Source: Escherichia phage Ecwhy_1. From it: a DNA stretch of 64,000 nucleotides. The stretch lies in sequence record MH791411.1. One strand, given 5' to 3'. Below the pieces are notes generated by a model that had not been told where the DNA came from, did not search any database, and saw only the letters and a list, made by a program, of their open reading frames with translations. Position numbers and translations under genes: made by a program. The stretch's first letter is position 1. The number at the start of each line of letters is the position of its first letter. Of this stretch, positions 26,881 to 42,136 are shown piece after piece.

Positions 26881-28029
26881 ATGTTACCTTTTGTTAGAAT
26901 GTTTGATTATGGGAATGAAGCACCTACCAACTCTGGGCGTTTTAAAATATATTCCAGTGATTCTATGTATCTTCATGATACTTATACTGACAAGTTGTAT
27001 GCATCTTCTGCGACGAATTGGGGTACTGGTACAGGTGTAGCATCGAGTAAATTTATTCTTTGTGCGGAGAATGTTAAACGAGTTCTATTGGAAGATAACA
27101 GTAGTGATTGTCAATTGTATGAAGAGAAAGGTACTGGAAAAGTTTTTATCACTGGTAACACGAAGGCATTCACTGGTGTAACTGATAGAAAAACTTTGTG
27201 GACGGACTGTACTACGTGGATAACATCAAGTGGTATTAATGTTTCTGATATAAAATACATGAGTAGTTTTTATGATATGAAGGTGAATTTGATAACAAAC
27301 GATGGTACATTGTATTGTTGTGGAGCTAACAATATATCGAACATATCATCATTTGGTGATGGCACAAACATTAATTCTTTTAACACATTCAAAAGAGTAG
27401 ATACTATAACTTCGGTTAAAAAGGCAGTTGGTAACATTTATTTGCGAGAAGATAATACTTTATGGGGTTGTGGTTTTAACTATTACTACCAGTTGGGCAC
27501 GGGTAATCAAACTTCTATTACTGGGGTGACGATGATTTCTTCGGATGTTATAGATTTTAATGTAAGTTATCAGAGTACATTTTTTATCAAATCGGATAAT
27601 AATTTGTACGCTTGTGGTAAACAGTTCGGTGCACAATATGGGAACGAATTTGGTACAGGTGGTACTTCTACATCTACAGATATACAATATAAAACTCCCA
27701 CATTATTGAGTGCAGGTGTTTATAGTTTATATACTTGTGTTGGTAACATGGCATCACATATAGTTAAAGGTGATGAAGTACTTTATGCATCTGGAAGCAA
27801 CTCGTCTGGTCAATTAGGTGTTGGTAATAATAATAATCAGTACTCCTATACTCCTTCATATACTTCGTTTAATACCTCTTGTAATTTGGTACGCACCCCA
27901 TCTGGTTCACTTATACTTACTGATACTGGAAAATTATATTATTGTGGCCTTGCAATAGTAGTAATGGGTGGTATTTCTGGACAGAACGTTCTTAATTATA
28001 CAGAAGTCGATATGTCATTTTTGCAGTAA
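26881..28029 (+). CDS. RCC1-like beta-propeller repeat protein, paralog 1 (382 aa)
   Basis: Starts MLPFVRMFDYGN; repeated G-x-N-x-x-GQLG-x-G blocks; SD AAAGGAG. Confidence 0.75.
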   Translation: MLPFVRMFDYGNEAPTNSGRFKIYSSDSMYLHDTYTDKLYASSATNWGTGTGVASSKFILCAENVKRVLLEDNSSDCQLYEEKGTGKVFITGNTKAFTGVTDRKTLWTDCTTWITSSGINVSDIKYMSSFYDMKVNLITNDGTLYCCGANNISNISSFGDGTNINSFNTFKRVDTITSVKKAVGNIYLREDNTLWGCGFNYYYQLGTGNQTSITGVTMISSDVIDFNVSYQSTFFIKSDNNLYACGKQFGAQYGNEFGTGGTSTSTDIQYKTPTLLSAGVYSLYTCVGNMASHIVKGDEVLYASGSNSSGQLGVGNNNNQYSYTPSYTSFNTSCNLVRTPSGSLILTDTGKLYYCGLAIVVMGGISGQNVLNYTEVDMSFLQ

Positions 28030-28035
28030 ATTAAT

Positions 28036-28064
28036 ATGCCAGTACTTGATACTGGCTTTTTTGA
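28036..28064 (+). terminator. inter-paralog terminator hairpin (example; recurs after most RCC1-like genes)
   Basis: GCCAGTACTTGATACTGGC + TTTTTTG. Confidence 0.55.
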
Positions 28065-28096
28065 TTAAATATAGTATAATGAATAAAGGAGGAAAT

Positions 28097-29206
28097 ATGT
28101 TACCTTTTGTAAGAATGGTTAAGTACGGGAATATTGCACCAGTACCGAAAAAAATAAAGAAAGTTATAGCAGGATATGATAATTTATATGTACTATATGG
28201 TGATGGTTCGCTATATGGTTGTGGAATCAATAACTATCAACAGTTAAATATTGATGGAACTGCTACACAAAATAATTGGGTACTAATTACCAATGGTGTT
28301 AGTAATGCATGGGCTGGTGGATACAATATTTTATATTTGAAAGAAGATAAATTTATAATGCACGGAACTAATGTCTCATTAGGTTTAGGAAATACTACAA
28401 TTCCATTAGGTGGAGTAGATGTAACTTCTTCATTCCCAGATATCTCTAATATTAAAATGATATCCATTGGTTTTGATTCAATGCACTATGTTAGTGCTGA
28501 TGGTACAACTGTATATGGAAGAGGTATGAACACAAATGGTTCTGTTGGTTCAGGTAGTACTTACTCACAGAGTACTTTCACTTCAGTACTGAATAATGGA
28601 ACTAATCAGGTTATTGATATATTTGGTAACGTTAATAATACAGTGCTTCTAACATCGAATGGTGAGCTTCGAGCATGTGGGACAAGTGCTTATGGTTCTA
28701 TAGGAAATGAAACTGGTAAGTGGACATCGTTTGGTTTAAAATTATCTGGCACTAAAATAATGGGTGGTAATGGGTATAGTACGCTTGCATATACAAATTC
28801 GGGAATGTACCACTCAGGGTGGCAGTTAAATGGGGAACTAGGAAATGGTTTAGATACTAACGTACAGGTATATCCATTTCAATTTAACTCTAAAACGATA
28901 GATAGCAAGATAGATAAAATTGCCAAATCATCATCTGGGTCATATGTTAACATGTACTCAACAACAGAAGGAAAGATATATACGACAGGTTCGTTTGGTA
29001 AAAACGGGTCAACTACTGCATTGAATTTGTTCACCAATACATTAACACTTATAAATTACAATCCAGATACCGCCTCGTTGTATACGTGCACAAACTTCAG
29101 TGTTGTGTATGATGGTAATGAAACTATTGCTGTAAGTGGTAGTCCTACATATGTACCAGGGGGCGTTGCCGCTAATAGATGGACTACAATTCCATTACCC
29201 AAGTAA
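28097..29206 (+). CDS. RCC1-like repeat protein, paralog 2 (369 aa)
   Basis: Start moved to MLPFVRMVKYGN after SD AAAGGAGG; track ORF 27968 reads through junction. Confidence 0.75.
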   Translation: MLPFVRMVKYGNIAPVPKKIKKVIAGYDNLYVLYGDGSLYGCGINNYQQLNIDGTATQNNWVLITNGVSNAWAGGYNILYLKEDKFIMHGTNVSLGLGNTTIPLGGVDVTSSFPDISNIKMISIGFDSMHYVSADGTTVYGRGMNTNGSVGSGSTYSQSTFTSVLNNGTNQVIDIFGNVNNTVLLTSNGELRACGTSAYGSIGNETGKWTSFGLKLSGTKIMGGNGYSTLAYTNSGMYHSGWQLNGELGNGLDTNVQVYPFQFNSKTIDSKIDKIAKSSSGSYVNMYSTTEGKIYTTGSFGKNGSTTALNLFTNTLTLINYNPDTASLYTCTNFSVVYDGNETIAVSGSPTYVPGGVAANRWTTIPLPK

Positions 29207-40251: not shown

Positions 40252-40283
40252 TATAATGCCAGTACTATGTACTGGCTTTTCTT

Positions 40284-40934
40284 TTACATATTATATAATG
40301 TGAATGCAGTCACTTTACCAGTTGTTGTTAGTTCATTATAAAGATACTCCAAGATTCTCGCACACTCTAAGTATATCTCGATATCATCATGAATAAGTGA
40401 GTACTGAAATAGCTGTTCTTCAGGTAATTTGTATTGACTTCCTTTTAATGAATTGAGAATATCTTTCACATCATCAAGTACTGGGTAAAGTACGAAATCT
40501 TCATCATATTTTGAAGCAATAAATTCAAATCCACCACCATCAGTACTAGATATACCAATCAGTACTTTATCAATCAAGTTAATGTTTATATAACGGTTGT
40601 GATTTGGGTGAATTGAAATCTCAAACATAAGAGTACTGTTACAATCAACATCAATATACAAATATACATCATTGAATTTATAAGTTAAGCAACCGTACTC
40701 AAGAAAATCAGAGCAAATAATTGATGAGTTTTTTCTCGTCTCTGCGTAATGCATCTTGATATTCTTTTCACGCATAAGTAATTCGAACTTTGCACTAAAC
40801 TTGCCACCAGCAAGATAGTTAGTATTAGGACGTTTGTAACTTGCAACTGGTCGGTGGGATGATGTAAAGTATTTTTTTGTGAATCGTTTATGTTTAGTGA
40901 AATATTCTTGATAGAACTTACTTCTTTTATTCAT
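40284..40934 (-). CDS. hypothetical protein (216 aa), opposite strand inside the RCC1-like array
   Basis: ORF; convergent with paralog 11 and sharing its terminator hairpin. Confidence 0.6.
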   Translation of the reverse strand: MNKRSKFYQEYFTKHKRFTKKYFTSSHRPVASYKRPNTNYLAGGKFSAKFELLMREKNIKMHYAETRKNSSIICSDFLEYGCLTYKFNDVYLYIDVDCNSTLMFEISIHPNHNRYININLIDKVLIGISSTDGGGFEFIASKYDEDFVLYPVLDDVKDILNSLKGSQYKLPEEQLFQYSLIHDDIEIYLECARILEYLYNELTTTGKVTAFTLYNM

Positions 40935-41011
40935 GAGTACCTCAATTAAATCGCTGTAAAATTGTACATTATAAAATGATTAAATAAAGTATAACACAAG
41001 GAGATTTTATC

Positions 41012-42136
41012 ATGTTACCTTTCGTATTGTTATTTGATTATGGGAACGAAAAACAAGAAAGTTCTTATGATGTTAGTGTATATGGAAACAATAACTACAT
41101 TTTAAATAAACAAACTGGAAACCTTTTTGCATCCGGTGCTGCGGCATTCATGGGTGATAACACAGTTAAGTATTATATTACCCAAATAGAATCAAATGTT
41201 CATAGCTGTGAGATAGGTTTCCTATCATCATGGATAATTAAGAAGGACAAAACTGTTTTCATTTTAGGAAACAAAAGCAGTATAGGATTAACTGGTTCGA
41301 CAACATCATGGTTCGAAATTACAAATTTATTTTCTGCTGTTCCTGAAATATGGGACAACCTATTTGAATGTAAAGTTCAATTGGGATATAACTGTATACG
41401 TGTTATGACACCACTAGGATCAATCTATGCGATTGGTACAAACACTTATGGTGCATTGGGTACTGGTACTACATCCTCATCAACTTCGTTCGTTAAAAGT
41501 GGTGCTGTGGATGCTGTACGCATGGAATCAACAGAACGTTCAGTGTTCTATCAAAACAGTTCTGGACAATGGTTTGGATGTGGTGATAACACATATGGTA
41601 TACTAGGTCTAGGAACTACCGCGAGTCGTGTAAACTCATACACCGCACCAGTATGGACTAATGCAGAAGCTGTTAGCTTCTCTAACCGTGGGATCATATA
41701 CAGCCTCAATGGTACTCTATACTCATGTGGTGACAAAGTTAATGGTCAGCTAGGGGATGGATATACACAAAGCATAGACGCTGCCAGGAGCACACCATAC
41801 ACCATAGGAACCGCATTCCAAATTGGTAAGGCAATAACATCAGCTACACAAGCATCAGCCAACGTATTCATTGGTAAAGATAATAAGTTCTATGGTACTG
41901 GTAGTATTGCTGCTGGTATAAATGGTAGTGCTAGTGCTGCATTAAGTAAAGTTACTGCGTTATCAGCATCACTACCACCTGACATTACATACAATGATAT
42001 TATAACATTTAATACAGGGACCGTAACTTTTATTCAAGCAAAAGGACAACTATATTATGTTGGTAGAAGAACTTACATAGATAATAGTTCAGACGTTACC
42101 ACACAGTTCAGTGTAATTGGTGGCTTAGATAATTAA
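41012..42136 (+). CDS. RCC1-like repeat protein, divergent paralog 12 (374 aa)
   Basis: MLPFVLLFDYGN; blocks GTNTYGALGTG, GDNTYGILGLG, VNGQLGDGY; SD AAGGAG. Confidence 0.7.
   Translation: MLPFVLLFDYGNEKQESSYDVSVYGNNNYILNKQTGNLFASGAAAFMGDNTVKYYITQIESNVHSCEIGFLSSWIIKKDKTVFILGNKSSIGLTGSTTSWFEITNLFSAVPEIWDNLFECKVQLGYNCIRVMTPLGSIYAIGTNTYGALGTGTTSSSTSFVKSGAVDAVRMESTERSVFYQNSSGQWFGCGDNTYGILGLGTTASRVNSYTAPVWTNAEAVSFSNRGIIYSLNGTLYSCGDKVNGQLGDGYTQSIDAARSTPYTIGTAFQIGKAITSATQASANVFIGKDNKFYGTGSIAAGINGSASAALSKVTALSASLPPDITYNDIITFNTGTVTFIQAKGQLYYVGRRTYIDNSSDVTTQFSVIGGLDN

Follow-up and report, generated by a model that had tools for sequence, protein, structure and literature searches.

A portable N-terminal 12-mer as a candidate virion-incorporation tag on a shuffled array of RCC1-like propeller proteins in the jumbo coliphage Ecwhy_1

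Twelve paralogous plus-strand genes for RCC1-like proteins lie between positions 26881 and 42136 of the 64,000-nt stretch of the Escherichia phage Ecwhy_1 record (MH791411.1) that is analysed here and is referred to below as the window. All of their products begin with much the same 12-residue peptide, which we call the tag. A sequence-only reading of the window had located the twelve copies correctly and had described them as intact genes with an invariant N-terminal 12-mer; eleven are indeed intact (369-397 amino acids, aa), the sixth is frameshifted, and the 12-mer is nearly invariant, with leucine in place of arginine at position 6 of the last copy. The window comes from a RaK2/121Q-like jumbo coliphage of the genus Asteriusvirus: the flanks of the array are 98.7% identical to phage fEgEco12 and ~98% identical to WPEC5 and EC22.5-2, and the array genes are 83-100% identical to genes of fEgEco12 and WPEC3. 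The genes of the array, R1 to R12, and the one gene that interrupts it are:

26881-28029, plus strand: R1, RCC1-like propeller, 382 aa, tag MLPFVRMFDYGN; 94.8% identical to its 121Q ortholog
28097-29206, plus strand: R2, RCC1-like propeller, 369 aa, tag MLPFVRMVKYGN
29278-30459, plus strand: R3, RCC1-like propeller, 393 aa
30536-31729, plus strand: R4, RCC1-like propeller, 397 aa, tag MLPFARMVKYGN
31738-32847, plus strand: R5, RCC1-like propeller, 369 aa
32918-34097, plus strand: R6, frameshifted copy
34168-35313, plus strand: R7, RCC1-like propeller, 381 aa
35390-36580, plus strand: R8, RCC1-like propeller, 396 aa
36653-37840, plus strand: R9, RCC1-like propeller, 395 aa
37893-39044, plus strand: R10, RCC1-like propeller, 383 aa; the copy chosen for an AlphaFold2 model
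39115-40251, plus strand: R11, RCC1-like propeller, 378 aa; the weakest Pfam match
40284-40934, minus strand: 216-aa gene of unknown function (PHROG 34359), which splits R11 from R12 and keeps this position in relatives
41012-42136, plus strand: R12, RCC1-like propeller, 374 aa, tag MLPFVLLFDYGN, the copy with leucine at position 6

R6 consists of a tagged 59-aa open reading frame (ORF; 32918-33097) followed, in the +1 frame, by an untagged 358-aa ORF (33021-34097). When the frames are read against the paralog consensus, the shift falls at ~33040-33050 (GGACGGAAACC), between ...SLYMRG and GNQSAKMG. The same split is present in WPEC3 (98.9% identity) and is therefore an inherited disruption rather than a one-off assembly error; judged from its reading frames, R6 is a frameshifted pseudogene. 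Programmed frameshifting was considered and rejected, since a slippery heptamer is absent from the shift site. A candidate R6 ortholog in fEgEco12, g589, was also ruled out (57% nucleotide identity).

Arrays of this kind have been annotated before in RaK2-like phages (121Q_234-248, phAPEC6 gp001-010/549/551, PBECO4, Munch_535-550). The phAPEC6 paper describes eleven RCC1-like proteins (PMC7247149), and the CBB paper records that 121Q and PBECO4 have multiple RCC1 copies and that GAP32 has just one, which is virion-associated (PMC5259590). Since both papers noted the multiplicity, the array as such is already known; what appears to be undescribed is the 12-mer tag. Our literature search found no account of a shared N-terminal tag, of the tag on non-RCC1 proteins, or of junction-mediated cassette shuffling, and a search for the tag string, or for structural work placing RCC1 proteins in phage particles, found nothing relevant. 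In the records of relatives the array genes are labelled 'chromosome condensation regulator' or 'putative DNA condensation protein'.

The fold of the protein bodies, as modelled, is a seven-bladed RCC1-like propeller, and on this point Pfam, profile matches, the AlphaFold2 model of R10 and Foldseek agree with what had been read from the repeats. The Pfam scan took in R1-R5 and R7-R11; eight of these ten copies score above the gathering score for RCC1/RCC1_2 (PF00415/PF13540), with R5 and R11 just below it, and all ten match WD40_RLD (E-values of 4e-8 to 1e-30), in every case under that family's 150-bit whole-domain cut-off. A profile of 75 family members matches the solved RCC1-like domains of UVR8 (1e-45), HERC1 (1e-43), RPGR (1e-41) and RCC1 (1e-30). 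The R10 model (predicted local distance difference test score, pLDDT, 88.4; predicted template-modelling score, pTM, 0.88) superposes over its full length on UVR8, RPGR, HERC2 and RCC1, and Foldseek gives a template-modelling (TM) score of 0.75 for UVR8 (E 2e-21) and of 0.67 for RCC1. DSSP assigns 27 strands to the model, where seven four-stranded blades would have 28. The propellers contain ~6% lysine plus arginine (K+R) and 36-46% S/T/N/G, and their isoelectric points (pI) range from 5.1 to 8.6. BLIP-II, which had been brought in as a precedent for inhibitors of host proteins, is not among the 35 profile matches nor among the top 50 fold matches, and the N-terminus MLPFxRMxxYGN, read directly from the sequence, has no signal-peptide-like hydrophobic core; the precedent thus gains no specific support.

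The bodies of the paralogs are only 18-28% identical to each other (median 23%). Nucleotide columns, in contrast, are 100% conserved over bases 1-10 of the genes and 81-86% conserved over bases 11-40, against ~48% in the bodies, with the background level reached by ~base 45. The opposition of diverged bodies to conserved head and junction that the sequence-only reading had drawn therefore stands, and the divergence of the paralogs rules out an assembly artefact of near-identical repeats, which that reading had named as grounds for refutation. Its proposal of a diversifying multigene family has not been borne out: the gene-wide ratio of nonsynonymous to synonymous substitution rates (dN/dS) is 0.15-0.27 for ortholog pairs with 121Q, G17 or fEgEco12 (0.02-0.48 for neighbouring genes), and these pairwise comparisons, which are gene-wide and not site-wise, found no gene-wide positive selection on the array bodies. 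The paralogs are old, and by this measure each is individually kept under purifying selection between phages; what changes instead is cassette content and order.

The tag pattern M-[LIF]-P-[FI]-x-x-[ILM]-x-x-Y-G-N has twelve matches in the six-frame translation of the window and none in 200 shuffles. The synonymous sites of the window's tags are uniform, TTA, CCT and GGG being used in 12/12 copies (GGG makes up only 13% of body glycine codons), and there are two nucleotide types of head, ...GTWAGAWTRTTTGATTAT... and ...GCAAGAATGGTTAAGTAC..., each common to otherwise unrelated bodies. Conversely, one body can carry different tags: where R1 reads VRMFD, its counterpart has ARMVK in 121Q and ARMMN in G17, with body identities of 91-95%, which implies that homogenisation within genomes affects the head separately from the body. 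The linker after the tag is variable and in many cases reads I-A-P-x-P. In AlphaFold2 models the tag is a short helix ahead of the fold, both in R10 (residues 4-9, pLDDT 59-69), where a propeller follows, and in the CBB protein CBB_549 (residues 4-11, pLDDT 66-70), where a lectin sandwich follows; lying outside the fold at lower confidence in both models, it is not a propeller strand.

The variants of the tag in the window co-vary at three positions, with V5/F8/D9 (MLPFVRMFDYGN) in seven copies, A5/V8/K9 (MLPFARMVKYGN) in four, and R2 mixed. The FD variant is confined to the clade of the window, fEgEco12 and WPEC3 and is not found in 121Q, phAPEC6 or G17. The two coexisting variants could correspond to two docking sites or to one variant that is spreading.

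A pattern scan of related loci shows that the tag also heads proteins with no match to the RCC1 paralog profile. All seven genes of the syntenic locus of phage CBB (CBB_548-554) encode proteins beginning MLPF[SPA][IR]xxxY[GA]N. CBB_550, CBB_552 and CBB_554 are tagged Kelch propellers (Pfam E-values down to 4e-32); CBB_548 has a ConA-like Laminin_G_3 match (2e-12), and the same assignment for CBB_551 comes from the record's own note. No significant Pfam match was found for CBB_549 and CBB_553. The AlphaFold2 model of CBB_549 is a beta-sandwich (pLDDT 81) that most resembles domains which bind carbohydrates or receptors, among them CBM40, the Hc domain of a clostridial toxin and a phage tailspike, and on the strength of these ConA-like matches both proteins are placed with the lectin fold. 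CBB_536 and CBB_537, of the lectin group, and the distant, glycine-rich CBB_144 are also tagged. Elsewhere, tagged proteins of lectin type are GAP32_002, Munch_540 and ENKO_515c (Laminin_G_3, E 5e-9), and tagged glycine-rich (Gly_rich_2) proteins are Munch_544 (1.4e-5), ENKO_525c and 121Q_243/fEgEco12 g586. Comparison of these sequences indicates that the tag is a portable, separate module, not specific to propellers, and is carried by RCC1, Kelch, ConA-like lectin and glycine-rich bodies.

Selection on the tag acts at the level of protein. In an alignment of 75 propellers of eight lineages M1 and P3 never vary, and conservation reaches 90% or more at F4, Y10, G11 and N12, where the mean column identity is 23%. 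The fourteen copies in Munch keep the peptide MIPF[ATP]R[IM]xxYGN and vary its codons for Pro, Arg, Ile, Leu, Gly, Tyr and Phe (CCA/CCG, AGG/AGA/CGT and GGG/GGT/GGA/GGC, for example). Like Munch, the phages Kaldavass, Yen9-04 and XaC1 have tightly packed genes with no promoter cassette between them, and they too keep the tag peptide and vary its codons; persistence of the Munch peptide despite varying codons and with no cassette is what points to the protein as the object of selection. Conservation of the motif extends over Asteriusvirus, Mimasvirus, Eneladusvirus, Munch-like phages and Erwinia and Xanthomonas phages. When 50,697 phage records were searched with tag plus linker, 60 proved to have it; these are without exception RaK2-like jumbo phages of Enterobacterales or Xanthomonas, with fENko-Kae01 the sole Klebsiella record among the 60.

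Homologs of the lectin-type and glycine-rich bodies also occur, with no MLPF tag, in rV5-like phages: Cronobacter phage CR3_255 (5995-6645) and Salmonella phage PVP-SE1 gp19 (2998-3840). These proteins begin M-x-E-M-[LM]-[ML] instead (MNEMLMLGQ..., MFEMMLATSE...), and the two cases hint that rV5-like phages have a different, family-specific N-terminal tag.

Published mass spectrometry ties tagged proteins to virions. CsCl-purified CBB virions contained eight of the ten tagged proteins that we found (CBB_144, 536, 537, 548, 549, 551, 552 and 553), CBB_548 with five peptides and CBB_549 with six (50.7% coverage). Six structural proteins of CBB are absent from GAP32, and five of them are tagged. 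In phAPEC6, eight of eleven RCC1 paralogs are among the 62 of 551 proteins detected in virions (hypergeometric P = 2e-6). They include gp005, which is the ortholog of R10 (93.5% identity), and gp009, the closest phAPEC6 match to R2 (63.7%). GAP32 gp001, which is RCC1-like, is likewise a virion protein (PMC5259590). The suggestion that the 12-mer might serve to target proteins that are packaged or belong to the virion, one of several offered by the sequence-only reading, is the one that these data favour, with the amendment that the signal is not peculiar to propellers.

Two annotation gaps in the phAPEC6 record (MK817115.1), at 2434-3543 and 6063-7253, each hold an intact ORF for a tagged propeller (369 and 396 aa); these are the orthologs of R5 and R8. 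Being unannotated, they were probably missing from the database behind the virion proteomics of that phage.

The genes of the array are joined by a composite junction, of which that before R3 is representative:

29213-29313, plus strand: junction cassette before R3, with hairpin GCCAGTACTTGAGTACTGGC and T run, promoter-like TAAATATAGTATAA (29246-29259), Shine-Dalgarno sequence AAGGAGG and the 36-nt tag-coding head

Cassettes of the same build stand before R2, R6, R7, R8, R9, R10 and R11, and variants are found at R1, R4 and R12. An intrinsic-terminator-like hairpin (GCCAGTACT-N3-5-AGTACTGGC and a T run) stands before ten of the twelve genes, and the nine occurrences of a 25-nt upstream motif (AAATATAGTATAATGAATAAAGGAG; 0 expected) are all before array genes. 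TAAATA-N4-ATAA occurs 11 times in the window (1.3 expected), exactly before the 11 promoter-bearing array genes; R4 has its own variant of the promoter (TAAATACATTATAA, 30500-30513) and R1 an exact T4 late box (TATAAATA). R5, the sole copy with no terminator/promoter cassette, starts 8 nt past the R4 stop codon and is probably co-transcribed with R4 by read-through. The TAAATA motif matches one predicted upstream of CBB structural genes, including the tagged CBB_537, 551, 552 and 553 (compare GTAAATACATAATA before CBB_552 with TAAATACATTATAA before R4). A scan of the array for sigma-70 promoters found 71 sites where 90 are expected, that is, no enrichment; the element itself has a perfect TATAAT and no convincing -35 box. 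We infer from the motif match that the array promoters are of late type and that their genes are expressed late.

The GGCTTT in the junction was also considered as the MotA box of a T4-type middle promoter. In T4 the MotA box lies ~14 nt from the -10 box; the spacing here is ~19 nt, and this candidate was rejected.

The terminator stems of the array are built from the heptamer CAGTACT (core AGTACT), which is strongly over-represented throughout the window (at 701, 9734, 16161, 29500, 43047 and 55963, for example). AGTACT occurs 286 times, CAGTACT/AGTACTG 275 times, and CCAGTACT 71 times where shuffles lead one to expect 1.8. Many of the sites are intragenic. Of the 40 plus-strand CCAGTACT sites, only 9 are paired with an inverted copy no more than 25 nt away, which means that most are not terminator hairpins.

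Aligned with WPEC3 and fEgEco12, the array breaks up into collinear blocks whose ends overlap exactly in a junction or in the 36-nt head, so that every breakpoint falls in one or the other:

29277-29309: recombination breakpoint relative to fEgEco12, within the R3 junction cassette
30535-30572, plus strand: indel breakpoint against WPEC3, in the 36-nt stretch of R4 that encodes the tag; this head can be aligned at two places in WPEC3
32852-32964, plus strand: junction and tag head before R6, indel breakpoint; WPEC3 has one extra gene
39037-39150, plus strand: junction and tag head before R11, indel breakpoint; WPEC3 has two or three extra genes

WPEC3 has extra whole genes at three of the four joints. 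In fEgEco12, R6 and R9 are missing and other genes stand in their stead, and the R10 ortholog precedes the R8 ortholog. The comparison of copy number across relatives that the sequence-only reading had proposed gives 12 here, 15 in fEgEco12, ~17 in WPEC3, 13 in 121Q and one in GAP32. These alignments indicate that it is the set of cassettes and their order that change fast, through recombination at the junctions.

Taken together, the evidence favours an interpretation of the 12-mer as a virion-incorporation tag on interchangeable binding modules, to which we assign a probability of about 0.6-0.7, and the array is on balance best understood as a bank of late-expressed accessory virion proteins, each made of portable tag and binding module, that is shuffled at its junctions. 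In order along the polypeptide, each gene product would consist of the 12-residue tag (M-L-P-F-x-R-h-h-x-Y-G-N, h being hydrophobic), then a short linker, in many cases rich in proline, and last a globular module for binding, in Ecwhy_1 a seven-bladed RCC1-like propeller. The tag would bind one common site or partner during assembly; different modules would compete for the same places, and each would accordingly be present at low copy number. The modules would sit outside the particle as interchangeable adhesin or ligand-binding heads, perhaps at fibres or 'hairs'. With its intrinsic terminator, T4-late-like promoter, ribosome-binding site and 36-nt head, the junction would make each gene its own transcription unit, and junction homology would be the place where recombination brings in, removes and rearranges whole cassettes and keeps the tags of one genome alike. 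The present analysis or published mass spectrometry supports the fold, the portable nature of the tag, its conservation at the protein level, the virion association of orthologs and tagged proteins, and the junction breakpoints. We infer a causal role of the tag in incorporation, its binding to a common partner, the location of the proteins and the time of their expression.

External display of the tagged modules is the location that we favour, at slightly less than even odds. It is favoured because the bodies and their structural neighbours are adhesion or carbohydrate-binding domains of the kind that phages use in tails and decorations, because the proteins are near neutral and rich in S/T/N/G, and because no conserved protease site follows the tag. 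A more specific and more tentative version, which we hold to be possible rather than probable, has the 12-mer as a universal plug for one external docking site, for example the globular tips of tail or capsid 'hairs', with each particle carrying a random mix from at least a dozen different heads (propeller, lectin, Kelch and glycine-rich) and the repertoire being re-dealt between strains at the tag-coding junction.

Several observations weigh against this interpretation. The phAPEC6 RCC1 paralogs were detected with few peptides (1-5 peptides, 3-17% coverage), and the list of virion proteins of that phage includes replication enzymes, so that some carry-over is possible. In the record of fENko-Kae01 the flag for detection by liquid chromatography-tandem mass spectrometry (LC-MS/MS) stands, within the array, only on the glycine-rich ENKO_525c; none of its ~ten RCC1 paralogs is flagged, though 220 phage proteins were detected. 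The association of tag and virion is correlative, and the late timing of expression is read from a promoter motif. Placement inside the particle would suit the logic of the tag just as well. Finally, CBB has tail hairs and no RCC1 genes, and it was on this ground that the idea that RCC1 proteins are the tail hairs themselves was rejected.

The competing explanation that deserves most attention is that the tag is a capsid-targeting sequence (CTS) like that of the T4 internal proteins, by which the tagged proteins would be loaded onto the scaffolding core, come to lie in the head (possibly in the 'inner body' of phAPEC6) and be ejected with the DNA as polymorphic anti-defence or host-takeover effectors. 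The logic would be that of the T4 case, in which unrelated defence proteins have an N-terminal peptide in common; the phages in question possess a prohead core and protease (gp227c) of the T4 type; an inner body is present in phAPEC6 (PMC7247149); the paralogs are virion-associated, each at low abundance; and turnover of the array is rapid. The tag, however, has no sequence similarity to the T4 CTS. The cleavage motif of the T4 prohead protease is of (L/I)xE type, and neither a conserved (L/I)xE nor another invariant site was found in residues 13-40 of the alignments. The bodies (ConA-like lectin, Kelch, RCC1, glycine-rich) have carbohydrate- or receptor-binding domains as their closest structures, which is typical of external parts of phages, and they are near neutral with few charged residues. 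Moreover, a 40-kDa propeller would have to unfold in order to pass through the tail tube. We judge this explanation unlikely, though the T4 precedent makes it well worth keeping in view. The role that the databases assign to these genes, in which RCC1-type 'DNA condensation proteins' would order or compact the phage genome, is one in which we place almost no trust. It has the name in GenBank records and PHROG 4219 on its side, and the authors of the phAPEC6 study speculated on such a role (PMC7247149). The label, however, has been transferred from the name of eukaryotic RCC1, and the fold is a generic interaction scaffold whose best matches are domains of UVR8, HERC and RPGR, which are not chromatin factors. 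Ran is not known from bacteria. The low charge of the proteins (pI 5.1-8.6, K+R ~6%) argues against DNA binding, in CBB, which lacks RCC1 altogether, it is lectins and Kelch proteins that carry this tag at this locus, and GAP32 makes do with a single copy.

Two further explanations take the 12-mer for something other than a targeting tag. It might have no function of its own and be kept either by gene conversion of the 5' end together with the promoter or by a constraint of the mRNA start on translation initiation. Within the window much looks that way: the 36 nt are nearly identical even at synonymous sites, two nucleotide types of head are common to unrelated bodies, and breakpoints lie in the head. 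Against this stand the phages Munch, Kaldavass, Yen9-04 and XaC1, which keep the peptide with varied codons and no cassette, the conservation (at least 90%, against a mean of 23%) of M1, P3, F4, Y10, G11 and N12 across 75 sequences from eight lineages, and the fact that the tag tracks virion proteins of four folds; we consider the explanation largely refuted and highly improbable. Alternatively, the 12-mer might be the first strand of the propeller, kept for folding as the 'velcro' that closes the ring. The R10 model does have 27 rather than 28 strands, and the missing one could be N-terminal; YGN also bears a faint resemblance to the G-x-N turn of the repeat. The same peptide, however, is found on folds that are not propellers (the lectin sandwich and the glycine-rich domain), and AlphaFold makes it a detached, short, low-confidence helix in both folds tested, which leaves this explanation with very little to recommend it.

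If the virion-incorporation tag is what we take it to be, a set of hypothetical proteins becomes one testable system of handle, docking partner and shuffled heads, since the tag predicts virion association across four folds. The genes in question take up ~4% of the genome in a widespread group of giant enterobacterial phages and have until now carried a misleading name, 'DNA condensation protein', with no mechanism attached. They provide candidates for unexplained fibres and hairs on the particles and for accessory binding to host or environment. Were the tag sufficient for incorporation, it would offer a simple means, of the kind that the T4 CTS already provides, of loading jumbo phages with cargo outside or inside; were the universal-plug version true, the array would be a natural combinatorial display system and its 12 residues a handle for loading foreign proteins onto these phages. 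The locus is also a clean case, outside the T4-like phages proper, of a regulatory cassette serving as a recombination joint that reaches into coding sequence.

The surroundings of the array hold other multigene families. Upstream, and running divergently from it, are ~two dozen tandem small genes on the minus strand (22167-26774; 59-78 aa), which form a second family with at least two subfamilies, with N-termini like MNKEHKEFY... and C-termini like ...YTYREVLKLISI. Downstream, the minus strand at 42173-45450 encodes a tandem set of seven small membrane proteins, paralogs of 104-123 aa, and after them a P-loop nucleoside triphosphatase (NTPase) of 256 aa whose AAA/STAND matches are weak. This membrane protein/NTPase block adjoins the tagged array in all relatives examined (CBB_539-547, Kaldavass, Yen9-04, fENko-Kae01, G17 and 121Q), and a functional link with the tagged proteins is possible. 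Two minus-strand genes of similar size with basic N-termini, belonging to different PHROGs, lie upstream of the array (24115-24774, 219 aa, PHROG 29152) and, as listed above, between R11 and R12 (40284-40934, 216 aa, PHROG 34359). Farther upstream, a ~2-kb ORF-poor stretch (20200-22160) coincides with a change of sign in GC skew and a switch of gene orientation and contains a tandem repeat of 8-nt period with CGTCTAGC/CATCCAGC units (20962-21113); a 69-nt repeat with a GC hairpin is present in three copies, at 19013, 19692 and 20152. In fENko-Kae01 the array begins just inside the boundary of the direct terminal repeat, which suggests that 20200-22160 may mark the boundary of a terminal repeat or else have a regulatory role.

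How does this locus compare with systems that are already known? The RCC1 arrays of Asteriusvirus and other RaK2-like phages are the same locus with the same genes. With UVR8, HERC1/2, RPGR, RCC1 and BLIP-II the window's proteins have in common the seven-bladed propeller and the GxNxxGQLG repeat signature; unlike the eukaryotic and bacterial RCC1-like domains, they consist of the domain alone with a phage-specific tag, and have no Ran or chromatin context. The CTS of T4 is a short N-terminal peptide of the otherwise unrelated, polymorphic virion proteins IPI, IPII, IPIII and Alt, whose genes are in a variable region (PMC3012670). The likeness lies in a short N-terminal peptide on unrelated bodies that are found in virions and are encoded in a variable region of a T4-superfamily genome; the differences are that the tag has neither similarity to the CTS nor a conserved protease site, and that the tagged bodies are larger folds of binding type.

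A second likeness is with the Klebsiella phages KP32, K11 and KP34, in which a conserved N-terminal peptide docks secondary receptor-binding proteins (RBPs) in branched tail-spike systems (PMC13352976). There, as here, a short N-terminal peptide on variable binding proteins would serve a common virion site, which in the present case is putative. The KP32-type RBPs are trimeric tailspikes or depolymerases, with one protein docked on a T4gp10-like branching domain, whereas the proteins considered here are small propellers and lectins, with 12-17 competitors. The junction, for its part, resembles the promoter-early stem-loop (PeSL) cassettes, terminator plus promoter, that lie between the genes of hyperplastic regions in T4-type phages and permit homologous exchange and whole-gene indels (PMC2839356, PMC4122927). 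Both are composites of stem-loop terminator and promoter, and the breakpoints relative to two close relatives coincide with the cassettes. The PeSL promoter, in contrast, is an early sigma-70 promoter, while that of the window resembles the late TAAATA type; and in the window homology runs 36 nt into the coding sequence, so that exchange carries the protein tag with it. By analogy, then, the tag would work like the T4 CTS or the docking peptide of an RBP and be a member of neither family, and the junction would work like a PeSL.

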